9,910 nucleotides of DNA, taken from the IMG/VR virus record IMGVR_UViG_2529293139_000004, positions 1 to 9,910 of that record; one strand, given 5' to 3'. Source of the stretch: a virus. Taxonomy: Duplodnaviria; Heunggongvirae; Uroviricota; Caudoviricetes. The notes beneath the pieces are model-generated. The model saw nothing but the letters and a program-made list of their open reading frames with translations, was not told the origin of the DNA and did not search any database. Each line of letters starts with the position of its first letter. The first letter of the stretch is position 1. The translations under genes were made by a program, and so were the position numbers. Positions 1-9,910 of the stretch are shown here, piece by piece.

Positions 1-124
1 GCTTTTGCCGTTACGCACCACCCCGTCAGTAGCTGAACAGGAGGGACAGCTGATAGAAACAGAAGCCACTGGAGCACCTCAAAAACACCATCATACACTA
101 AATCAGTAAGTTGGCAGCATCACC
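1..124 (-). mobile_element. IS1 insertion sequence, partial (IRL-proximal 124 bp; rest of element lies beyond window start)
   Basis: Reverse complement of 1-124 reads GGTGATGCTGCCAACTTACTGATTTAGTGTATGATGG..., which is the IS1 left terminal inverted repeat plus the insA upstream region as I recall it. Outer end of IRL is at 124. Confidence 0.9.
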
Positions 125-302
125 CTCTGCACGTTGTTGAATACTTGTCATTTTCATCCACTTATTTCAGGCTTATGTAATTGGCGGTGATTCTACAGCA
201 ACTTGGATGCTTTAGCAGTTCGGACATTAGGCTACGAATGACCTGCCTAGAGGTTTGTTAAGACGCAAAGTGCTGGTGCTTTATGCCTGTGAAGTTTATA
301 GT

Positions 303-327
303 TGTGTACACATAACGAGTACACGAG
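303..327. promoter_or_regulatory. phd-doc promoter operator region (palindromic Phd/Doc binding sites)
   Basis: Perfect 10-bp palindrome TGTGTACACA at 303-312 and a related GAGTACAC half-site at 317-324, immediately upstream of the phd SD. Consistent with known autoregulation of the P1 addiction operon. Exact site boundaries not verified. Confidence 0.5.
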
Positions 328-333
328 GTGTTT

Positions 334-555
334 ATGCAATCCATTAACTTCCGTACCGCGCGCGGCAACCTTTCTGAAGTGCTCAACAATGTTGAGGCCG
401 GGGAAGAGGTTGAAATCACCCGCAGAGGCCGTGAGCCAGCAGTAATTGTCAGCAAGGCTACTTTCGAAGCCTACAAAAAAGCGGCGCTGGATGCTGAATT
501 TGCATCTCTGTTTGACACCCTGGACTCCACCAACAAGGAACTGGTTGACCGATAA
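334..555 (+). CDS. phd: Phd antitoxin (prevent-host-death), 73 aa
   Basis: Translation [44 protein letters not shown]... matches P1 Phd from memory. ATG at 334 is preceded by GAGGTG (325-330); the ORF-track start at 328 is an in-frame GTG just upstream. Stop overlaps the doc start (TAATG). Confidence 0.93.
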
Positions 556-935
556 TGAGGCATATATCACCGGAAGAACTGATAGCGCTTCATGATGCGA
601 ATATAAGCCGCTACGGCGGCCTGCCTGGCATGTCAGATCCGGGCAGGGCAGAGGCCATTATCGGGAGAGTTCAGGCCAGAGTTGCCTACGAAGAGATCAC
701 CGACCTTTTCGAAGTCTCCGCCACCTACCTGGTGGCTACAGCGAGAGGGCATATATTCAATGATGCCAATAAGCGTGCCGCGCTAAACAGTGCGCTGTTA
801 TTTCTACGCCGTAACGGGGTGCAGGTATTTGATTCACCTGAACTGGCAGACCTTACCGTAGGGGCTGCGACCGGAGAGATATCTGTATCTTCTGTCGCCG
901 ACACGTTACGTAGATTGTATGGTTCCGCGGAGTAG
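555..935 (+). CDS. doc: Doc toxin (death on curing), Fic-fold kinase, 126 aa
   Basis: 126-aa product with the Fic-type motif HIFNDANKR; sequence matches P1 Doc from memory. Translationally coupled to phd by a 1-nt overlap. Confidence 0.95.
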
Positions 936-939
936 ATTA

Positions 940-1119
940 ATGGCACGTAAATACAACAAATTGTCCCGTGAAGCGTTAAAGATGCTTCTTGATGGCGTGA
1001 GTCGCCGCGAGGTAAAGCAATACCTGGTTGGTAAGCAAATTGGTGCTAGGACCGCTATTGCTGTGTTATGCCGTCAGGAAATGGTTGTGCTTAAACAGAG
1101 AATGCCGGGCAGCAGATAA
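940..1119 (+). CDS. small hypothetical protein (59 aa from ATG 940), immediately downstream of doc; position corresponds to pdcA of P1
   Basis: ORF-track entry 919..1119; the internal ATG at 940 has GGAG about 12 nt upstream. Basic, possibly helix-rich product. No recognisable domain from sequence alone. Confidence 0.4.
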   Translation: MARKYNKLSREALKMLLDGVSRREVKQYLVGKQIGARTAIAVLCRQEMVVLKQRMPGSR

Positions 1120-1146
1120 AGCCCAATCAGTGATGAAAGGTGTGAT

Positions 1147-2190
1147 GTGAAAGCCGTAATTACTCCCTTTGTACAAAAAGAGCTTGGCGTCGCCACATTC
1201 AAAGTGGATCAGGAAGTCAGAAAGCTGGTGGAGGCTGGCCGTAAATTTATTATGGAGCCGGTGCCGCGTGAGTTAATCGAGCACATGGACGACGGCCTCG
1301 TTGTTTCCGAGCAAACTATGGCAACAAATGAGGCGTTGCAGCCGTTTTTTAACAGCGATGAACTGTTTCGCCGTATTGGTGGAATTGACACGCTGGTGGC
1401 GTGGTTGCGCAGGAAAGAGGGGCAATGCCAGGCCGCAGATCGTAGCTGGTGTGACAACCATATTGTCCACGCAGAACGAGACAATAGCGCGGTGTTGTTG
1501 TGCTGGCATCACGATAACCATTACCGGATGCGTGGTTTTAATGAGCTGAAAGAAACGCTGCATAATAATCGCGTTAACTGGATACTGGATGTCGCCCGTC
1601 AGGAAATGGGGCTTTCAGATGGCCATGATCTAAGTATTCAGGAACTGTGCTGGTGGGCTTTCATGCGCAACATGATGCACCGAATGCCGGAAGAAGTTTG
1701 CCGTATATCAATAAATAAGATGAAAGCCGCAACGCAGGATAGCGGACCTCTGAAAGAGGCGGATATTCGCCCGTATAACGATCGCGCTACAGCATATGTT
1801 CAGATGATGGAAGAACGCGCCGCGCCGATGCGTGCAAAAGTATGCCCTGTGGATGTTGACTCCGACCCTGGCATGGCGCATTTCAAAATACCAAAACTGC
1901 AATCGCTAAAATTACCTGAGTACATGGACTTTGTTGCTTCCCGTCCATGCTGTGGGTGTGGAGCGGCGGGAGCTGGCGCTCACATTACGCCTTATATCGT
2001 TCGTCATAGTCGATTATGCGCGCATGACATTTACGCAATTCCTCTGTGCCAGTCATGCCTGCGTGATATTGAGCGTGACCGCGATAATTGGGAGAAGACG
2101 CACGGTAGGCTGGCGATGCATCAACGATTGTTCTTTGATTACGCGCTTGGAGTCGGCGCTATCACAAGTTACTCGTCGAGCGTTATATAA
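1147..2190 (+). CDS. 347-aa Cys/His-rich protein with HNH-like zinc-binding motifs (position and size suggest the P1 pdcB / DUF968-type protein)
   Basis: GTG start at 1147 preceded by AAAGGTG. Long ORF with motifs CWHHDNH and PCCGCG...H...C...PLCQSC typical of HNH/zinc-hook-like nucleases. Assignment to the pdcB/DUF968 family is from memory and not verified. Confidence 0.7.
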
Positions 2191-2191
2191 A

Positions 2192-2233
2192 ATTGCTCTA
2201 ATGTATTGCTATTTCTTTAATCGATGGTATTAT
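2192..2233 (+). promoter_or_regulatory. C1-type operator(s) overlapping a sigma70-like promoter
   Basis: ATTGCTCTAATGTATTG (2192-2208) matches the P1 C1 operator consensus ATTGCTCTAATAAATTT; a second partial match ATTGCTATTTC starts at 2205. -35 TTGCTA (2206-2211) and -10 TATTAT (2228-2233) with 16-nt spacing. Confidence 0.6.
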
Positions 2234-2278
2234 ATTTCACGTTGATTAGTTGACATGGGCTAATCAGTAGGTGACAGG

Positions 2279-2488
2279 ATGTTACTTAACTGGCAGGGAC
2301 GCCACTTCATGGAAATAAATCACTCACGAATAACATCGTACGAGATTGCGGATTACATGATCCGCACTAAATCTCTTCTATCAGCGAAAGAACTCGCAGC
2401 AATTCTTGAAAAGGAATACCCGCATCTGGATGTCGATAACGCCAGCATTTATCAAAATGAAGCTGGCGGAGTACGGCGGGCGCGATAA
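2279..2488 (+). CDS. hypothetical 69-aa ORF with good RBS downstream of the C1-operated promoter; possibly the N-terminal part of a frameshifted lpa-like gene
   Basis: ATG 2279 preceded by AGGTGA. Plausible protein-like translation. Overlaps the 5' end of the KilA-C ORF in another frame. Confidence 0.35.
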   Translation: MLLNWQGRHFMEINHSRITSYEIADYMIRTKSLLSAKELAAILEKEYPHLDVDNASIYQNEAGGVRRAR

Positions 2489-2804
2489 CCCTATGTACAT
2501 GATTAAGGTATCAGTAGCTAAAGGGATCCTGATTGGGAATTTTGCAAAGGTTGTTGGACTTAAGCAAAACGCGCTGTTTGTCTGGTTACGGGAGAACGGC
2601 ATCCTGATAGCGTCCGGTGGACGTAAAAATGTGCCGTTCCAGCAGTACATCAACGCGGGGTATTTCACGGTGAAAGAAGTGGTGCTGGATGATGAAGATG
2701 GCTACCAGATACGGTTGACGCCTCAATTAACGGGTAAAGGCCAGCAGTGGTTGACGCGTAAACTGCTCGATGCTGGCTTGTTAAAACCGGTGGCGGCTGA
2801 ATAA
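2406..2804 (+). CDS. KilA-C (ANT)-domain DNA-binding protein; occupies the position of the late promoter activator (lpa) region of P1
   Basis: Translation contains GNFAKVVGLKQNALFVWLRENGIL...NVPFQQYINAGYFTVKE, which fits the KilA-C/ANT domain pattern. ORF-track start 2406 is TTG; in-frame ATGs at 2430, 2457 and 2493 all lack a convincing SD, so the true start is unresolved. Confidence 0.55.
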   Translation: MKRNTRIWMSITPAFIKMKLAEYGGRDNPMYMIKVSVAKGILIGNFAKVVGLKQNALFVWLRENGILIASGGRKNVPFQQYINAGYFTVKEVVLDDEDGYQIRLTPQLTGKGQQWLTRKLLDAGLLKPVAAE

Positions 2805-2811
2805 TGGAAGA

Positions 2812-2833
2812 ATGCCCGGTTGATGCCGGGCAT
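2812..2833. terminator. hairpin between convergent genes (KilA-C gene and c1), probable bidirectional terminator
   Basis: 8-bp perfect stem ATGCCCGG/CCGGGCAT with 6-nt loop, followed on the plus strand by AATTTATT. Lies 8 nt after the KilA-C ORF stop and directly 3' of the c1 stop. Confidence 0.55.
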
Positions 2834-2836
2834 AAT

Positions 2837-3688
2837 TTATTGCGCGCTTTCGGGGTTGTCGTTTACTGGCTGCCCCTTCTTAGTTTTACGGCTGCGCGTA
2901 ACTGATGCGGCTGATTTGACCTTTTTCTCTTCGCGAGTGATGGCAATTTGTTTTTTTACATTTTCAATATCTGCCAGGCGATATATTTTTGCCTGGGGCC
3001 AGCGGTCGCAGATGATCGGTTCTATGGAGTCATATAGGCTAAATTTTGCTTTTTCGAATTCACCGTTGATGATAATTCCATCACGGAGAGTTTCATCGCA
3101 GATAAACACGCCACATAGTGGCACATGGTAACTCACTGATTTACCATCATTGTAGTTAGGGCTACTGGAAATGTAGTGGACGCGCAGCATTGTTTCGCTA
3201 AAGCCGTGTACGCGCATACGGAATTTTTCATCCTCCGGGTACTGCCTCATTAGCTCTTTTGTTGCTTCCAGGTTCTCTATGTATTTCGCACTGTGCTCAT
3301 TGATCCCCGCGCTTTTTTGGATGCGAATGTCCTTATCAATCAGATGAATAATGCGGCCAGCGGTCATGTTGACGCTGTTTACAGCTTCTGTCTGATAAGT
3401 TGTAACCTTACGTACACCGCGAAGGATGTTAGGCACTGGATATAAAATAGTCTTTGGGATATTGAGGTCTGGGTACTGTTCCAGTTCCCGCGCCATTAAA
3501 GTCCATTTATCAATTTCAGCCTGAATGCTGTCCGTTTCTTTGAACGGCAGAACGACAACCGGGCGAACAGGACGACCGTCGCTGGCGGCATCAACGTGTT
3601 GGGCGCGTGCAACAGCTTTTTTTAGAAAGAGATCCCTGAAGCTGACGAACTCCTGGTACAGTTGTTCGCCGTAGACATAATTTATCAT
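2837..3688 (-). CDS. c1: C1 repressor of lysis/lysogeny, 283 aa
   Basis: 283-aa product starting MINYVYGEQLYQEFVSFRDLF..., matching P1 C1 from memory. Strong SD (GGAGGAGG) upstream on the minus strand. Confidence 0.95.
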   Translation of the reverse strand: MINYVYGEQLYQEFVSFRDLFLKKAVARAQHVDAASDGRPVRPVVVLPFKETDSIQAEIDKWTLMARELEQYPDLNIPKTILYPVPNILRGVRKVTTYQTEAVNSVNMTAGRIIHLIDKDIRIQKSAGINEHSAKYIENLEATKELMRQYPEDEKFRMRVHGFSETMLRVHYISSSPNYNDGKSVSYHVPLCGVFICDETLRDGIIINGEFEKAKFSLYDSIEPIICDRWPQAKIYRLADIENVKKQIAITREEKKVKSAASVTRSRKTKKGQPVNDNPESAQ

Positions 3689-3781
3689 TGATCCTCCTCC
3701 AGAATTGACATGGTCAATAACGCCCGGCTGAGAAAACCGGTCATTACTGACCTATATTATAAAGTGATCAAACAAAAATAA

Positions 3782-3799
3782 TAGATTTATTAGTGCATT
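3782..3799 (-). promoter_or_regulatory. weak C1 operator-like site at the coi/c1 junction
   Basis: Reverse complement TGCACTAATAAATCT matches 13 of 15 positions of the operator core TGCTCTAATAAATTT. Confidence 0.3.
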
Positions 3800-4008
3800 T
3801 ATTGTGAGTCTAACTGGTTAGTTGCCATGAGATATTCGATTGTGTCAGTGAGGTCATCCAGGTCGTCTTGGGTGATGCGGTACTCCTGATTGGATATCTT
3901 TGAGTAGTGTTCAGCAATGGCGCGGGCAGCGTCGGTTTCGGCAGGGTCTACAGATAAAGCGTTAGAGCAATGTCTAACGTCGTCGATGGTTGGTTGAATG
4001 AAAGCCAT
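3799..4008 (-). CDS. coi: Coi (C1 inactivator), 69 aa
   Basis: 69-aa acidic product immediately upstream of c1 on the same strand, with SD TGAGG. Size and position match P1 coi. Confidence 0.88.
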   Translation of the reverse strand: MAFIQPTIDDVRHCSNALSVDPAETDAARAIAEHYSKISNQEYRITQDDLDDLTDTIEYLMATNQLDSQ

Positions 4009-4247
4009 AATTATGCCTCACTGTATTGACAACACAGAGCCTGAAGCTCTGACCTACTGTTTCACCCATGATCCATGCTGGGGTAATCTAACAACATTGC
4101 GCTGTGTGTAAGATGAGCAATGCATAGCTGTAATGCCGTTGTATAAGGTTTCCCTGTTTGCTCATTTCCTTCTGAGCCGCTCTACAACGCTGAAGACACA
4201 TTAAATAGTGAATCCAAAGTCGTATTACGTAACGGCGGCAAAACTAT

Positions 4248-4264
4248 AATTTATTAGAGCAATT
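4248..4264 (-). promoter_or_regulatory. C1 operator (Op99-type), minus orientation
   Basis: Reverse complement AATTGCTCTAATAAATT is a near-perfect match to consensus ATTGCTCTAATAAATTT. Upstream of coi-c1. Confidence 0.65.
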
Positions 4265-4329
4265 GCCAGACAACTATGAAAAACAATCCAGTTTTTAGCT
4301 GGTGGAGTGGGATTTTTCTCTCAAAATTT

Positions 4330-4346
4330 ATTGCTCTAATAATTCT
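4330..4346 (+). promoter_or_regulatory. C1 operator, plus orientation
   Basis: ATTGCTCTAATAATTCT between coi and loxP. Confidence 0.65.
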
Positions 4347-4389
4347 TGATTTTTGTGCATGGCTGGACGTAAACTCCTCTTCGGACCTG

Positions 4390-4423
4390 ATAACTTCGTA
4401 TAGCATACATTATACGAAGTTAT
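4390..4423. other. loxP site-specific recombination site (34 bp)
   Basis: Exact ATAACTTCGTATA-GCATACAT-TATACGAAGTTAT, i.e. canonical loxP written in reverse-complement orientation of the spacer. Confidence 0.97.
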
Positions 4424-4494
4424 CTTAAGGGTTATTGAACATGATCAATTTACCTGTAAATCCATACAGTTCAATACCTTATCAGGTCAAATAG

Positions 4495-4516
4495 TGATCA
4501 CTTGATCATTTGATCA
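4495..4516. promoter_or_regulatory. cluster of three TGATCA (Dam GATC) hexamers at 8-bp spacing in the cre upstream region; likely methylation-sensitive promoter element
   Basis: TGATCA at 4495-4500, 4503-4508 and 4511-4516; a further GATC at 4443. P1 cre promoters are reported to be Dam-regulated (established knowledge, recalled). Confidence 0.5.
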
Positions 4517-4612
4517 AGGTTGCGCTACGTAAAATCTGCGAAATGTTGGCGGTGTTAGTCCTACAGATTTCGCGTAGCGCACTTAGCACCACCAATCAAT
4601 CAGAGGTGAAAA

Positions 4613-4834
4613 ATGGGATATTCAGCTGCTAAAGTGTCCACTCATCTTGAGCTTGAGAAAAACCGTGGTTACTGGCGGGCAAAAGGGTTTGAGCGTGATA
4701 GTTACCAACTGTCATTATCTCGCGGTGAAGAGAAAATAGAACGCACGCGCGGTCGCTGGCGTTTCTATGACGAGAACCATAAACAGGTAAAGGCAGAGCC
4801 GATCCTGTACACTTTACTTAAAACCATTATCTGA
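4613..4834 (+). CDS. hypothetical 73-aa protein encoded between loxP and cre
   Basis: ATG 4613 preceded by strong SD GAGGTG with 4-nt spacer. Charged, protein-like product. Stop at 4832-4834 lies 7 nt before the cre ATG, suggesting translational coupling. Not a gene I know to be annotated in P1. Confidence 0.4.
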   Translation: MGYSAAKVSTHLELEKNRGYWRAKGFERDSYQLSLSRGEEKIERTRGRWRFYDENHKQVKAEPILYTLLKTII

Positions 4835-4841
4835 GTGTTAA

Positions 4842-5873
4842 ATGTCCAATTTACTGACCGTACACCAAAATTTGCCTGCATTACCGGTCGATGCAACGAG
4901 TGATGAGGTTCGCAAGAACCTGATGGACATGTTCAGGGATCGCCAGGCGTTTTCTGAGCATACATGGAAAATGCTTCTGTCCGTTTGCCGGTCGTGGGCG
5001 GCGTGGTGCAAGTTGAATAACCGGAAGTGGTTTCCCGCAGAACCTGAAGATGTTCGCGATTATCTTCTATATCTTCAGGCGCGCGGTCTGGCAGTGAAAA
5101 CTATCCAGCAACATTTGGGCCAGCTAAATATGCTTCATCGTCGGTCCGGCCTGCCACGTCCAAGTGACAGCAATGCTGTTTCACTGGTCATGCGACGGAT
5201 CCGAAAAGAAAACGTTGATGCCGGTGAGCGTGCAAAACAGGCGCTGGCGTTCGAACGCACTGATTTCGACCAGGTTCGTTCACTCATGGAAAATAGCGAT
5301 CGCTGCCAGGATATACGTAATCTGGCATTTCTGGGGATTGCTTATAACACCCTGTTACGTATAGCCGAAATTTCCAGGATCAGGGTTAAAGATATCTCAC
5401 GTACTGACGGTGGGAGAATGTTAATCCATATTGGCAGAACGAAAACGCTGGTTAGCACCGCTGGTGTAGAGAAGGCACTTAGCCTGGGGGTAACTAAACT
5501 GGTTGAGCGATGGATTTCTGTCTCTGGTGTAGCTGATGATCCGAATAACTACCTGTTTTGCCGCGTCAGAAAAAATGGTGTTGCCGCGCCAACATCCACC
5601 AGCCAGCTATCAACTCGCGCCCTGGAAGGGATTTTTGAAGCAACTCACCGATTGATTTACGGGGCAAAAGATGACTCTGGTCAGCGATACCTGGCCTGGT
5701 CTGGACATAGTGCCCGTGTCGGTGCCGCGCGAGATATGGCCCGCGCCGGAGTTTCAATACCGGAGATCATGCAAGCTGGTGGCTGGACCAACGTAAATAT
5801 TGTCATGAACTACATTCGTAACCTGGATAGTGAAACGGGGGCTATGGTGCGCCTGCTGGAAGATGGCAATTAG
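4842..5873 (+). CDS. cre: Cre tyrosine recombinase, 343 aa
   Basis: Translation MSNLLTVHQNLPALPVDATSDEVRKNLMDMFRDRQAFSEHTWKMLLSVCRSWAAWCKLNNRKWFPAEPEDVRDYLLYLQARGLAVKTIQQHLGQLNMLHRRSGLPRPSDSNAVSLVMRRIRKENVDAGERAKQALAFERTDFDQVRSLMENSDRCQDIRNLAFLGIAYNTLLRIAEISRIRVKDISRTDGGRMLIHIGRTKTLVSTAGVEKALSLGVTKLVERWISVSGVADDPNNYLFCRVRKNGVAAPTSTSQLSTRALEGIFEATHRLIYGAKDDSGQRYLAWSGHSARVGAARDMARAGVSIPEIMQAGGWTNVNIVMNYIRNLDSETGAMVRLLEDGN is near-identical to canonical P1 Cre. Confidence 0.97.
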   Translation: MSNLLTVHQNLPALPVDATSDEVRKNLMDMFRDRQAFSEHTWKMLLSVCRSWAAWCKLNNRKWFPAEPEDVRDYLLYLQARGLAVKTIQQHLGQLNMLHRRSGLPRPSDSNAVSLVMRRIRKENVDAGERAKQALAFERTDFDQVRSLMENSDRCQDIRNLAFLGIAYNTLLRIAEISRIRVKDISRTDGGRMLIHIGRTKTLVSTAGVEKALSLGVTKLVERWISVSGVADDPNNYLFCRVRKNGVAAPTSTSQLSTRALEGIFEATHRLIYGAKDDSGQRYLAWSGHSARVGAARDMARAGVSIPEIMQAGGWTNVNIVMNYIRNLDSETGAMVRLLEDGN

Positions 5874-5890
5874 CCGTTCATTTGCGCTTT

Positions 5891-5907
5891 ATTGCTCTAA
5901 TTATTTG
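5891..5907 (+). promoter_or_regulatory. C1 operator between cre and the cra-like ORF
   Basis: ATTGCTCTAATTATTTG matches the C1 operator consensus. Confidence 0.6.
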
Positions 5908-5923
5908 ATATTTATGGTGACGC

Positions 5924-6235
5924 ATGCGGAAGGATTTCAAAATAGACGGAAAATATGTGGTGCTGTCTGTAAGCTCTCAAATTCAGTCACCATCTGTCAT
6001 TGTCACCGTAAAGTTTAGCGATAGGATGCCTGATATCGACTCGATATCTGTTGCGTTCCCCGTTAAAAACATGCGGAGTGCTGAACATTTTGTGATGAAT
6101 GCAACGGAGGAGGAAGCGCGGCGCGGGCTTACTAGAGTGATGGTGGAATTTGGCGAACTCCTGGGTAAGGTAAACAATGCCCTTTCAATCAGTTCAGCAA
6201 GATCCAAAGCGTTAACAGCTTCCATGATGAAATAA
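5924..6235 (+). CDS. hypothetical 103-aa protein in the position of cra (cre-associated) of P1
   Basis: ATG 5924 with GGTGA upstream; sits between cre and ref as cra does in P1. Identity to Cra is inferred from synteny only. Confidence 0.55.
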   Translation: MRKDFKIDGKYVVLSVSSQIQSPSVIVTVKFSDRMPDIDSISVAFPVKNMRSAEHFVMNATEEEARRGLTRVMVEFGELLGKVNNALSISSARSKALTASMMK

Positions 6236-6238
6236 AAA

Positions 6239-6259
6239 AGCCTGGCAAGGAGCCAGGCT
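6239..6259. terminator. GC-rich hairpin after the cra-like ORF; U-tract is on the minus-strand side
   Basis: Stem GCCTGGC/GCCAGGC with 5-nt loop, flanked by A6 on the plus-strand 5' side (T-run if read on the minus strand). Orientation of function ambiguous. Confidence 0.4.
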
Positions 6260-6364
6260 GCACAAAAGAGCGGGTTTGTATTCCGCACCAATCAATCAAG
6301 AAGGAGTATAGCACACAGGTACTGAAGTGAAAAAATGTGATTCGCGAGAAACAAAATATCTACT

Positions 6365-6388
6365 ATTGCTCTAATTGATTGCTATAAT
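6365..6388 (+). promoter_or_regulatory. C1 operator overlapping an extended -10 promoter upstream of ref (Op2-like)
   Basis: ATTGCTCTAATTGATTG (6365-6381) followed by TGcTATAAT (6380-6388). P1 ref is known to be C1-controlled. Confidence 0.6.
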
Positions 6389-6447
6389 TTAGCCGCAGTT
6401 TTTGTCAACTACGAAGACGTTGCCATTACTTCACTCCTTGACATCAT

Positions 6448-6473
6448 AGGCGGCCATTAGGCCGCCTTTTTTT
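6448..6473 (+). terminator. rho-independent terminator-like hairpin immediately upstream of the ref start codon
   Basis: Stem AGGCGGCC/GGCCGCCT, 4-nt loop ATTA, followed by T7 (6467-6473). The ref ATG is at 6480. Confidence 0.55.
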
Positions 6474-6479
6474 GACCAT

Positions 6480-7040
6480 ATGAAAACAATCGAACAAAAA
6501 CTTGAACAGCGCCGCGAGTGGCAGAAGGCAGCCAGAGAACGAGCGATCGCTCGGCAACGGGAAAAGTTGGCTGACCCCGCCTGGCGAGAATCGCAATATC
6601 AGAAAATGCGGGATTCTATCGACCGCCGTATCGCTAAACAGAAAGAGTGCCCACCAGCCAGCAAAACGCGGAAAAGTGCGGTAAAAATAAAATCTCGTGG
6701 CTTGAAGGGACGAACACCGACGGCAGAGGAACGGCACATAGCCAATGCTCTTGGCGCTCTCCCCTGCATTGCGTGCTATATGCATGGAGTAATATCTGAA
6801 GAGGTGTCTCTGCACCATATTTCCGGTCGTACCGCGCCTGGTTGTCACAAAAAGCAATTGCCACTTTGTAGATGGCACCACCAGCATGCAGCACCGGCTG
6901 AAGTAAGAGCAAAATACCCCTGGCTGGTCCCTGTTCATGCCGATGGAGTGGTTGGAGGCAAGAAAGAATTCACCCTGCTGAACAAGTCAGAGATGGAGTT
7001 ACTGGCTGACGCCTATGAGATGGAAACTTTATTAGTCTAA
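6480..7040 (+). CDS. ref: Ref, RecA-dependent HNH endonuclease (recombination enhancement function), 186 aa
   Basis: 186-aa product with basic N-terminus and the HNH core (...CRWHHQH...); matches size and sequence character of P1 Ref. Confidence 0.92.
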   Translation: MKTIEQKLEQRREWQKAARERAIARQREKLADPAWRESQYQKMRDSIDRRIAKQKECPPASKTRKSAVKIKSRGLKGRTPTAEERHIANALGALPCIACYMHGVISEEVSLHHISGRTAPGCHKKQLPLCRWHHQHAAPAEVRAKYPWLVPVHADGVVGGKKEFTLLNKSEMELLADAYEMETLLV

Positions 7041-7108
7041 TATATTTATTATTTCTGTTTTTATTAAAACTGAGTTTCTCTGTTATTATCGAGAGTAGTT
7101 CTTCGTAT

Positions 7109-7876
7109 ATGGAGCATAAGCCAAATATGACAACGCACAAAATCCCAAAAAAATTTTGGGACAAAAAGATGGTTGAATGGCCATGTCCTAATTGCGGGCA
7201 AAAAACCCTGAGAATTTTAGACGAATCTTTCATCTGTAAGGACACTGCTGAAACTATCAAAATGCAGGCTGAGGAATGGTTTGACTTAGAGTATACAAGC
7301 TCGGTATTCAGTTGCATGTCACAGTGCGTAAGACCTCAATGTAAGGAGGTAGTGGCATGCACAGGCAGAAGTGGTCTAGAAGAAGATTGGGCCGAGCATA
7401 CAGGACTTTATTACTATCGCTGGTATGAACCATTAAGTTTTACTCCTGGGTTAAAGCTCTTTCTTATCCCGAACATGTGCCCTGAAGACATAGCCTTGCC
7501 TATAAACACCTCGTTTGCACTAAGCACAATCCATCCAGGTGCCGCTGCAAATCTAATAAGAACATCTGTAGAACGATTACTTACAGCTATCGGGGTAACG
7601 GAAACAAACGAAAAAGGGAATAGAATTAACCTCCATAATAGGATTGAGATGATCCCTAGTGAACATTCTGGCTTTAAAAGCCTGTTATTTGCGATTAAGT
7701 TTCTTGGAAATGCGGGTAGCCACCGCTATGAAAACGTTACCGCTGATGACTTGGATAACTCATACGAGATCATGAATTTTATTCTAAGAGATTTATATTC
7801 GGATAATCGCAAAAAGGTTAGTGAGTTAGCTAATAATCTAGACAAAAAATTTAATCCTCAAAAACAAAAAGGTTGA
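7109..7876 (+). CDS. 255-aa protein: N-terminal Cys-rich zinc-ribbon-like region plus C-terminal DUF4145-like helical domain; candidate accessory/defense gene
   Basis: CPNCGQ...C...CMSQCVRPQCKEVVAC in the N-terminal half. C-terminal AAANLIRTSVERLL...FAIKFLGNAGSH...YEIMNFILRDLY fits the DUF4145 pattern as I recall it. Gene is visibly AT-rich compared with flanking P1 core genes. Confidence 0.75.
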   Translation: MEHKPNMTTHKIPKKFWDKKMVEWPCPNCGQKTLRILDESFICKDTAETIKMQAEEWFDLEYTSSVFSCMSQCVRPQCKEVVACTGRSGLEEDWAEHTGLYYYRWYEPLSFTPGLKLFLIPNMCPEDIALPINTSFALSTIHPGAAANLIRTSVERLLTAIGVTETNEKGNRINLHNRIEMIPSEHSGFKSLLFAIKFLGNAGSHRYENVTADDLDNSYEIMNFILRDLYSDNRKKVSELANNLDKKFNPQKQKG

Positions 7877-7995
7877 CATCTGACAAGTGACTTCAGTCAG
7901 AATCATCACACGCCCGGTACGGATGGATCCCTTTTCAAATATTCCATGGACGGCACAGTCTGAGTACCGGGCGCTACCTTCCGTTGTATTGCTAA

Positions 7996-8020
7996 GCCGC
8001 CGCTGGTGGCTTTCTTTTTT
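7996..8020 (+). terminator. rho-independent terminator-like hairpin 12 nt upstream of the next start codon
   Basis: GCCGCC-GCT-GGTGGC (one G-U pair) followed by TTTCTTTTTT (8011-8020). Confidence 0.5.
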
Positions 8021-8031
8021 GTAGGGGCGCT

Positions 8032-8673
8032 ATGGATAAGAAAATATGCGTTGTTTCAATGAGCGTCGGCAAACCGGCGTCAATGACTGCTGCATGGATC
8101 AATAATGAGCTGATAATGGCTGAGCGGACCAGCTACCCTGAACGCCGCCGCGATATGGAACTCCAGCTGCTGCGCGAATTGCGAGAAAAAGAGGAAAAGA
8201 GTTTTATCGTGCTGGTGGAAGAGGAAAACAGCTTTATTACGGGTCGAGTTGGCCAGCGTGTAAGGTTGCGCGATCCCTTCATGAACGGCAGGCCGGTACT
8301 AATTGAAGCAATGCAGATTTACAAGGAGCTGGAACGCCAGAAAGCAATCAAGTTACCGCGCAAGGAATCCGGCAAATACATCCTCCACCAAAGCATCTTC
8401 GATTCCGAACACGATAAAAAAGGCGATGAATTTTTCAACATCAACTGGAGCGAAATAACGACAGAGCATGTTCTGACGTTACTATGTTGCTTTGTGACGG
8501 AATACAACAACGTTGCCAGCGCCGACTACATCAGGGCAATGGCTGGAGAAGTTGAGGCCCGCCAAGAACCATCGTTACTAAGTCCACTGATTAACATAAT
8601 TCTGGGCACCCAGATACTGGAACAAAAAAAAGTGCCGAAAGGGGTATTAACAGGCAAGCATAATTATTTTTAA
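8032..8673 (+). CDS. hypothetical 213-aa protein with no domain I can recognise
   Basis: ATG 8032 preceded by AGGGG. Long ORF with GC content typical of the P1 backbone, flanked by AT-rich genes. May be a core phage gene (mat-like position) or a partner of neighbouring genes. Confidence 0.7.
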   Translation: MDKKICVVSMSVGKPASMTAAWINNELIMAERTSYPERRRDMELQLLRELREKEEKSFIVLVEEENSFITGRVGQRVRLRDPFMNGRPVLIEAMQIYKELERQKAIKLPRKESGKYILHQSIFDSEHDKKGDEFFNINWSEITTEHVLTLLCCFVTEYNNVASADYIRAMAGEVEARQEPSLLSPLINIILGTQILEQKKVPKGVLTGKHNYF

Positions 8674-8766
8674 CAATTATATACAGTAATTTTGTGGTTA
8701 CATTCTCCATTGATTTTCTAACCGCTTTATCATTAGATGTAACAGCATGTAAATCATTTAAAATGG

Positions 8767-9657
8767 ATGAAAGCAATGGGGAATGAAGTTTATCAAAGTC
8801 AAAAATGCAAGTTGAAATATTCAAAATCTCAAATTGATAGGGCTGCTCAATTGATAAGGCACGGGTGTAGTGACGAAGAAAGGCAGCAATCTATTGAAAT
8901 GATACAAAATTTCCGTGAGCTGCATCTTTATCCATTAATGCTCATGAAAAATCATTTAGCAAGAGCAGCTGCTAAGGTTGACAAAGACAAAAAGATTCTC
9001 GTTGCAAGAAGACTTAAGCGACTTTCTACCATAATAGATAAACTAGAGCGTCCTAGTCTTGATGGAGGCAGAACTAGCAATGCAATTAAATTAACACGGA
9101 TGCAGGACGTTGGCGGATGTAGGGCCATTGTCAGAAACTTAGACCAGTTGATACAGCTAAAGGAACGTCTTTTAAAAAGCAAATCTGTTCATAGGATTGT
9201 TAAAGAGTATGATTATCTTACTCCCAAAGACAGCGGCTATAGTGGAATCCACCTTGCATACAGTTGCTTCGATCAGAAAGAGGATCAATATCCGTGGCGA
9301 AAAACAAAGATTGAGATACAGTTAAGAACTCAATTGCAGCATGCTTGGGCTACTAGCCTTGAAATAATTGATACCCTTGAAGGTATCAAGCTGAAAACTT
9401 CAAGTGAAGGGCATCCAGAATGGAGACGATTTTTCTATCTAGCCGGATGTCTTGTAGCGCACGACGAAAAAGCCTGCACTCTTGATGAGCTAGTTGTATC
9501 TCAGTATGAAGGCGAGCTTAAAGAGCTGGAACGGACTTTATCTGTACGGAGGAAACTAAGCACATACACCATCGCCGGTAGTGACTCCAACTTACTGATA
9601 GTGTTTTATGTTCAGATAATGCCCGATGACCTTGTCATGCAGCTCCACCGATTTTGA
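8767..9657 (+). CDS. RelA/SpoT-family nucleotidyltransferase (toxSAS/CapRel-like), 3' end interrupted by IS1: native codons 1-270 (8767-9576), then 26 IS1-derived codons
   Basis: Synthetase-domain motifs [33 protein letters not shown] and [13 protein letters not shown]. The IS1 IRR begins at 9577 inside the reading frame, so the last 26 aa and the stop are IS1 sequence. Confidence 0.8.
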
Positions 9658-9910
9658 GAACGACAGTGACTTCCGTCCCAGCCTTGCCAGATGTTGTCTC
9701 AGATTCAGATTATGTCGCTCAATGCGCTGAGTGTAACGCTTGCTGATAACGTGCAGCTTTCCCTTCAGGCGTGATTCATACAGCGGCCAGCCATCCGTCA
9801 TCCATACCACGACCTCAAAGGCCGACAGCAGGCTCAGAAGACGCGCCAGTGTGGCCAGAGTGCGTTCACCGAAAACGTGCGCCACAACTAGTCCTCCGTA
9901 TCCTGTCATA
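9577..9910 (-). mobile_element. IS1 insertion sequence, partial (IRR and 3' part of insB; continues beyond window end)
   Basis: GGTAGTGACTCCAACTTACTGAT at 9577-9599 is an IS1 right inverted repeat variant; the downstream sequence encodes the InsB C-terminus on the minus strand. Confidence 0.9.
9592..9910 (-). CDS. insB: IS1 transposase InsB, C-terminal portion (N-terminus beyond window)
   Basis: Minus-strand translation ...[98 protein letters not shown] matches IS1 InsB; stop codon lies within the IRR. Confidence 0.88.

Follow-up and report, generated by a model that had tools for sequence, protein, structure and literature searches.

We analysed a 9,910-nucleotide stretch of DNA (the window; positions 1 to 9,910 of the IMG/VR virus record IMGVR_UViG_2529293139_000004), the whole of which is a segment of a P1-like phage-plasmid as annotated by comparison with P1. 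Near its 3' end lies a 213-codon gene that an earlier reading made from the sequence only had left as a protein of unknown function between two AT-rich accessory genes. This gene is mat, the already known "particle maturation / maturation control" gene of the P1 backbone. Our best explanation, to which we assign a probability of about 0.7, is that mat persists here on a defective remnant, that it is independent of the neighboring CapRel gene, and that it encodes a protein resembling the nuclease domain of the terminase large subunit (TerL), which would work in packaging or particle completion and whose expression would be gated by a structured leader. The features around mat are as follows.

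7031–7047, plus strand: C1-operator-like site homologous to P1 Omat; it overlaps the stop codon of ref
7055–7866, plus strand: AT-rich cassette not in P1, between Omat and the Pmat −35 box
7109–7876, plus strand: coding sequence (CDS) of the DUF4145 gene
7873–7878, plus strand: −35 box TTGACA of the sigma-70 promoter Pmat
7885–7893, plus strand: −22 element AAGTGACTT of the late promoter LPmat
7898–7903, plus strand: −10 box CAGAAT shared by Pmat and LPmat
7907–7973, plus strand: conserved leader stem-loop with a 10-bp outer stem (7911–7920 with 7964–7973)
7923–8024, plus strand: upstream ATG and 33-codon frame with the stop codon TAG at 8022–8024, in a different frame from mat
7994–8022, plus strand: terminator-like hairpin and T-run, within the mat 5' leader and not at the end of the upstream gene
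8032–8673, plus strand: mat CDS, ATG start, 213 amino acids (aa), "maturation control protein"
8512–8670, plus strand: variable 3' module of mat, codons 161–213
8776–9576, plus strand: RelA/SpoT-domain gene (CapRel-type fused toxSAS), cut after codon 267

The mat gene, its start and its leader

The frame from the ATG at 8032, its backbone-like base composition next to AT-rich neighbors and a hairpin ahead of its start had all been noticed in the sequence-only reading, and all three are borne out. The G+C content of the mat CDS is 46.7%, close to the 47.5% of the backbone from phd to ref; the DUF4145 CDS has 39.7%, the native part of the RelA/SpoT gene 40.4%, and the 102-nt spacer between mat and the latter 28.4%. 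Megablast against phage records matched mat of P1, P7, RCS47, SJ46 and others, and database homologues carry the name "maturation control protein". The identity to P1 is 95% at the nucleotide level (P1 2660–3413) and 93.9% at the protein level across residues 1–213. With its position between a ref–mat and a mat–lxc slot, this upholds the earlier suggestion of a conserved, mat-like P1 gene that marks the boundary of an integration hotspot. The protein matches phrog_1837 over its full length (residues 1–213, E = 5.6e-111), a PHROG family (1837) labelled "unknown function"; no sequence-family match was found in Pfam (E <= 1), NCBIfam or PADLOC. The exact Mat sequence of the window recurs in 892 indexed blocks of the assembly collection, corresponding to hundreds of assemblies. 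Since codons 1–160 differ from those of P1 by 18 synonymous and 2 nonsynonymous codon changes, the codon comparison identifies the open reading frame as a real gene under clear purifying selection.

The reference annotation of P1 Mat is longer (250 aa) and starts at an ATG equivalent to window position 7923 (L001 2716–2829, NC_005856). Relative to P1, the window misses one T and one G just 5' of the inner ATG. The positions of ref, mat, CapRel, res and lxc were mapped in 80 P1-like IMG/VR loci (L030–L109); the in-frame extension is present in 35 and absent from 45 of them, depending on homopolymer lengths. The 37 extra codons of P1 run through the leader hairpins. The more distant homologues, at 71%, 55% and 39% identity, share the start MDKKIC, and the extensions that gene callers give to such homologues are mutually unrelated. 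Because the distant homologues share this start and the extension frame is so often broken, the alignments indicate that the 213 aa from MDKKIC are the conserved Mat product; the 250-aa annotation is probably too long at its start, and it probably conceals a conserved regulatory leader. We also considered a leader peptide from the ATG at 7923 and rejected it: its frame and stop vary among lineages, its Shine-Dalgarno sequence is poor, and in D6 the ATG is missing.

All three promoter boxes of mat are present and align base for base with Pmat and LPmat as annotated in P1 (NC_005856 2666–2696). The operator-like site agrees with the C1 operator consensus at 14 of 17 positions and maps to P1 Omat (2628–2645); the window contains seven C1-operator-like sites, compared with 0.06 expected. 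Owing to the DUF4145 insertion, this site lies 826 bp upstream of the boxes. P1 homology ends near 7054 and restarts at 7867, and the intervening cassette (39.2% G+C) carries a gene with a match to Pfam DUF4145 (E = 2.9e-11). The same gene also matches PHROG 1305, "DNA binding protein"; a PADLOC search with it gave no convincing match. DUF4145 genes occupy this site in 4 of the 80 loci (L034, L052, L086 and L087), with or without CapRel downstream, and occur there in two allelic forms that are 93% and 65% identical.

The leader spans about 125 nt between the promoter boxes and the mat ATG, in the order outer stem-loop, terminator-like hairpin, Shine-Dalgarno sequence, ATG. Its outer stem encloses two small hairpins and a nearly invariant stretch. 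Comparison of 13 distinct leaders, drawn from about five lineages, shows compensatory changes at 4 of the 10 outer-stem pairs, and 98.4% of the outer-stem cells are paired, as against 36–45% with the partners slid. The observed covariation score was reached by none of 500 shuffles; given the few independent lineages, this covariation is supportive and not conclusive. A covariance model of the leader gives a single strong match per P1-like genome, in each case just before mat; the 100 kb of the SJ46 genome contain exactly one. Strong matches upstream of mat were also obtained in JK004, in an S. diarizonae contig and in an Erwinia contig, and weakly at the same position in D6-type phages. An Rfam search of 6900–8900 returned no relevant family and none matching the leader. 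As far as we could find, this conserved leader appears to be undescribed.

The hairpin itself (7994–8012) consists of 8 pairs, 5 of them G–C, closed by a 3-nt loop and followed by TCTTTTTT to position 8020. The T-run ends 11 bases before the ATG at 8032 (12 according to the sequence-only reading), and the Shine-Dalgarno sequence AGGGG lies at 8023–8027. A G+C-rich hairpin followed by a U-tract has the shape of an intrinsic terminator; termination itself is only predicted. By energy alone the hairpin is unexceptional (−11.5 kcal/mol, z = −1.3 against shuffles), and the scanned region holds 4 terminator-like sites compared with 1.7 expected. A hairpin with T-run nevertheless stands 18–34 nt before the mat ATG in lineages whose Mat proteins are 34–71% identical, with differing loop and stem sequences. 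The carriers are JK004, L026, L027/L029 (Mat 39% identical) and D6 (34%); the most distant relatives examined, L112 and L114, do not have it. Because the hairpin is kept upstream of such divergent mat genes, its conservation suggests more than chance.

The hairpin could alternatively be the terminator of the ref or DUF4145 unit, with mat transcribed from an unrecognised promoter 3' of it. The canonical shape of hairpin and T-run, and its location about 120 nt after the DUF4145 gene, would fit this assignment. However, the 11 nt between the T-run and the ATG hold the Shine-Dalgarno sequence and leave no space for a promoter, the annotated and conserved Pmat/LPmat boxes lie 5' of the hairpin, and its position is constant in lineages with quite different upstream genes. 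We therefore judge a terminator of the upstream unit to be improbable. For the same reason, the insulation of mat from upstream transcription that the sequence-only reading had implied is doubtful: the hairpin lies 3' of the promoters of mat itself. Rather than insulating mat from ref, it may attenuate or conditionally gate mat transcription, and the leader could act as a cis-acting attenuator or as a short leader RNA that fixes the dosage of Mat.

Fold and role of Mat

Lists of essential P1 genes have included mat since the amber-mutant era, but we found no biochemical function reported for its product. An exhaustive profile search yielded 141 cluster representatives of Mat, mostly of 185–240 aa; locus scans with the distant relatives P0074 and P0140 found nothing. 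The AlphaFold model used here, built on a 70-sequence alignment, has a predicted local distance difference test score (pLDDT) of 90.6 and a predicted template modelling score (pTM) of 0.78; an earlier model from 15 close sequences (pLDDT 55.8) was not used. Foldseek searches against BFVD and against PDB agree on an RNase H-like fold that is closest to the TerL nuclease domain. In this model Mat belongs to the RNase H-like fold of the terminase-large-subunit nuclease type, a likeness that appears, as far as could be found, not to have been described.

RNase H-like nucleases have, as a standard feature, an Asp on strand 1. Of 70 sequences, 62 have S, T or C at the corresponding position of Mat (position 9, at the end of predicted strand 1), and D or E does not occur among the residues listed. 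Positions 63–64 at the end of strand 4, D or E in 96% and 100% of the sequences, are the only uniformly acidic ones; at position 138, 59% of the family have D, and the P1 group has N. As modelled, the Mat family lacks the catalytic carboxylate set that includes the strand-1 Asp, and the predicted active site is degenerate. Residues 72–81 form an Arg-rich hairpin insert. None of the 70 family members matches a Pfam nuclease or terminase family at E <= 0.01, and a PDB sequence search with Mat gave no significant match. No packaging ATPase is fused to the N-terminus: Mat is a stand-alone protein of 213 aa, and the homologues are of similar size. The large terminase of P1, PacB (494 aa), gives weak ATPase and RNase H-like signals, and its C-terminal part matches Sf6 gp2 at equivalent positions. 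A profile comparison between Mat and PacB was not significant. A split terminase, with Mat as the nuclease that PacB lacks, was also considered and is unlikely, because PacB seems to hold its own ATPase and nuclease parts. With PacB apparently complete, Mat would be an extra domain and would not supply a part that the terminase lacks.

The genomic context of mat offers a second line of evidence. Outside Punavirus, the mat homologue is the first gene before the homologues of P1 genes 26-25-7-24-6-5, on the same strand, in what is a baseplate/tail operon; P1 gene 26 encodes a gp25-like wedge. This linkage is seen in the Cronobacter phage JK004 (L116), in D6 (L117), in L026, L027 and L112/L114, and in the Salmonella lineage L021–L025. 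In P1 the baseplate/tail operon lies about 75 kb from mat, and a late promoter is annotated for mat. The gene is listed as essential with credit to Lehnherr 2001 as reference 119 (PMC10695390), and CRISPR interference (CRISPRi) with mat gave an efficiency of plating of 0.28 (PMC10695390). The late promoter, the baseplate-operon context and the essentiality record together point to a morphogenetic role of Mat.

From the model and this context we infer that Mat may be a terminase-nuclease-like factor that controls packaging or completion. As a morphogenesis factor that is not part of the virion, it would bind DNA, terminase or portal through its terminase-nuclease-like module; it would probably be non-catalytic or atypically catalytic, and it would be needed for DNA packaging or particle completion. 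A more specific version, which we put forward tentatively, makes Mat a pseudo-nuclease that derived from or converged on the TerL nuclease and became a separate packaging-control subunit, with its dosage set by the conserved leader RNA. Such a pseudo-nuclease might gate or finish headful packaging, or pass the filled head on to tail joining, and the leader RNA (stem-loop and terminator) might work as an attenuator or as a mat-specific small RNA. A TerL-nuclease-like fold with a degenerate active site makes a concrete and testable hypothesis for Mat. The gene is already known; the fold, the probably over-long annotation and the leader, all three undescribed as far as we could find, are of moderate specialist interest.

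Several observations weigh against this explanation. The Foldseek template modelling scores (TM-scores) for Mat are just about 0.45–0.53, and the assignment of the missing Asp maps predicted secondary structure on the canonical RNase H-like topology rather than on a residue-level superposition. The binding and action of Mat proposed here are predictions. The CRISPRi knock-down of mat lowered plating just about 4-fold (PMC10695390), and a paper on P1 virions and knock-outs (PMC9024508) does not mention mat, which is an absence of evidence on virions and not a finding. Synteny with baseplate genes favors tail or baseplate assembly over DNA packaging. In the leader, no antiterminator alternative was identified, and termination at the hairpin is a prediction.

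The synteny argument leads to the proposal that Mat serves the assembly of the baseplate or tail, as a chaperone or an assembly catalyst, and not DNA packaging. In every non-Punavirus lineage examined, mat heads the operon of 26, 25, 7, 24, 6 and 5. Yet phage gene order is suggestive and not decisive, mat is unlinked from the baseplate operon in P1, and the fold resembles terminase nuclease domains and has no known precedent among baseplate chaperones; on balance we regard a tail-assembly function as rather unlikely. Alternatively, Mat would have structure-specific nuclease activity, as a resolvase of Holliday junctions or branches or as an auxiliary nuclease of headful packaging or of maturation, and would process replicated P1 DNA for packaging in the manner of T4 endonuclease VII or the RuvC-like phage resolvases. 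This idea draws on the RNase H-like TerL-nuclease fold (RuvC, Cce1 and poxvirus resolvases were also matched), on the two acidic residues that close strand 4 throughout the family, on positions 124 and 138, which are D or E in most members, and on the Arg-rich insert. It conflicts with the missing strand-1 Asp, with the Asn that occupies position 138 throughout the P1 group, and with the failure of any member to match a nuclease or terminase family in Pfam. An active nuclease is thus unlikely, and slightly more so than a tail-assembly factor. A terminase-nuclease-like packaging or completion factor accommodates the fold and the degenerate site, and remains our preferred reading.

Cargo hotspot, CapRel and state of the element

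The sequence-only reading had also proposed Mat as a partner of the downstream RelA/SpoT gene, and the content of the neighboring slots in other P1-like elements bears directly on this question. Large E. coli plasmids typically show the layout ref-DUF4145-mat-CapRel(375 aa)-lxc, and in sister contigs lxc also comes after the cargo. In the 80 loci the interval between mat and lxc is occupied as follows.

CapRel of the SJ46 type: 8 loci
CapRel of the window type (74% identical to that of SJ46): 3 loci
EcoPI res/mod: 8 loci
nothing (30–40 bp): about 10 loci
other cargo in several size classes: remaining loci
contig stops before lxc: 5 loci

Representatives of the other cargo encode SIR2-like (ThsA/PDC-S25-like), DUF2971 (PDC-S31) and PIN (PDC-S34) proteins, ORF6N/ANT with JukA, GNAT, or YaaC with a nucleoside-deoxyribosyltransferase-like gene. 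In further contigs, an autotransporter and a LuxR-type gene were found as mat–lxc cargo. A scan of genome contigs gave 5 loci only. Usually about 188 bp separate ref from mat. Besides the DUF4145 gene in the four loci named above, this slot has other insertions in 12; in SJ46 it holds about 9 kb with Tn1721, IS903D and CTX-M-27.

The 3' end of mat follows this variation. In 83 P1-like loci, residues 1–160 of Mat are on average 99.5% identical (10 variants), compared with a mean of 78% and a minimum of 51% for residues 161–213 (36 variants). In the window, codons 161–213 differ from P1 by 10 synonymous and 11 nonsynonymous changes. Every common C-terminal variant pairs with one cargo type: the 9 loci with one of them all carry SJ46-type CapRel, the 8 loci with another all have the DUF2971 gene, and a further one goes with res/mod in all four loci that reach lxc. 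The variant of the window goes with window-type CapRel. Residues 161–213 thus vary and track the cargo, which places the recombination boundary of the downstream hotspot within the mat gene near its 3' end; lxc is the opposite arm. As fixed arms of a hotspot for defense genes and other cargo, mat and lxc may aid the mining of defense systems in P1-like phage-plasmids. Two side observations concern the variable segment: the C-terminal motif VP.G.LTG is kept despite the variation, and a promoter-like site at 8591–8618 could serve the cargo gene.

The CapRel gene of the window is identical over residues 1–267 to an intact 375-aa gene in L004 and then runs into IS1 sequence, so that the pseudo-ZFD antitoxin/sensor domain is removed. 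It is 74–76% identical to CapRel-SJ46 and matches Pfam RelA_SpoT and PADLOC PDC-S33. The remnant nearly equals the CapRel fragment that was published as toxic, residues 1–272 (PMC9712102). In phage SJ46, the CapRel-SJ46 gene directly follows mat. The CapRel-SJ46 protein is a fused toxin-antitoxin, which was non-toxic and protective when carried with 100–200 bp of upstream DNA on a promoter-less vector (PMC9712102).

A function of Mat as antitoxin, regulator or co-factor of the CapRel/toxSAS gene would be in keeping with their shared strand and adjacency across the 102-nt spacer, with the recurrence of this adjacency in SJ46 and other elements, and with the separate Mat C-terminus found with each CapRel type. 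However, a CapRel-type gene lies 3' of mat in only 11 of the 80 loci, the others containing res/mod, SIR2-like, PIN, DUF2971, JukA or GNAT genes, other cargo or nothing. CapRel is absent from the more distant mat lineages, in which mat heads the tail operon without a cargo slot. Mat has no similarity to full-length CapRel including its antitoxin domain (BLASTP E >= 0.19), and no Pfam or PADLOC match indicates homology to toxSAS antitoxins. Moreover, CapRel-SJ46 is self-neutralising and works without mat (PMC9712102). A C-terminal variant is linked to its cargo for all cargo types, CapRel or not, which marks the link as the trace of a recombination breakpoint and not of functional pairing. Identity with the P1 maturation protein and the inconsistent association with toxSAS genes thus speak against the proposed partnership, which we consider extremely unlikely. 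The idea of an antitoxin or regulator is unsupported because many different cargoes surround a constant mat; mat is a constant backbone gene and independent of the neighboring CapRel.

The gene order of the window (phd-doc, pdcB, c1, coi, cra, cre, c8, ref, then mat) is that of a P1-derived backbone, whose remaining features are listed here.

1–124: IS1 end
328–935: phd/doc
1147–2190: pdcB
2279–2804: truncated lpa, joined after about 55 codons to the 3' part of an ORF6N/ANT gene
2837–3688, minus strand: c1, with coi alongside
4842–5873: cra and cre
6480–7040: c8 and ref
9577–9910, minus strand: IS1 copy that cuts the CapRel gene and extends past the window end

In addition to the truncation of lpa, pacA and pacB are absent from the element. 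Because lpa is truncated and pacA/pacB are deleted, late-gene activation and DNA packaging are impossible for this element; it is a defective P1-like plasmid remnant and not a functional phage, and for the same reason Mat is probably a passenger without a job here. The P1-derived segment is flanked by IS1 at both ends of the window and has the look of a P1 remnant within a larger plasmid. These two IS1 copies are different IS1 variants. A search for another record with the IS1/CapRel junction of the window found none. The best-matching E. coli plasmid, pCD74-2-1 (NZ_CP050045.1, L162, 4777–6443), carries the same ref-DUF4145-mat-CapRel block with an IS1 inserted between mat and CapRel or within the 3' end of mat; IS1 insertion near mat has happened more than once, as the window and pCD74-2-1 show. 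In vB_EcoM-673R5 (L002, 4824–6665), mat is annotated as split (84+122 aa) and so is the CapRel gene (182+180 aa), which suggests frameshifts or sequencing errors.

Comparison with known systems

The TerL nuclease domains of T4 gp17 (3cpe), G20c TerL (5m1f), Sf6 gp2 (4idh) and P22 gp2 (4dkw) are the nearest structural relatives of the Mat model. Unlike these proteins, Mat lacks both an ATPase domain and the acidic residue that closes strand 1, and it has no detectable sequence similarity to them; P1 already has PacB as its large terminase. The RuvC, Cce1 and poxvirus Holliday-junction resolvases were matched lower than the terminase domains, and their catalytic carboxylates are not conserved in Mat. 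With the toxSAS antitoxins and the pseudo-ZFD domain of CapRel (PMC9712102), Mat has in common only genomic adjacency in some elements; sequence similarity and consistent co-occurrence are missing, and CapRel needs no separate antitoxin. The mat leader shares with leader-terminator attenuators the order of promoter, structured leader, terminator-like hairpin, Shine-Dalgarno sequence and ATG. It differs from them in that no antiterminator, ligand, leader peptide, regulator or Rfam family has been identified for it, and termination is predicted.

The closest counterpart is P1 Mat itself (mat, formerly gene 1; P1_gp006, YP_006475.1; PHROG 1837). In contrast to the 250 aa annotated in P1, the window encodes 213 aa with the upstream frame closed, and the last 53 residues belong to another variant than that of P1, one that is linked to CapRel cargo. 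The C1 operator of the window is shifted by about 0.8 kb by the DUF4145 cassette, and the host element, unlike P1, is defective. The promoter boxes, the leader and the backbone position after ref are shared by the two genes.

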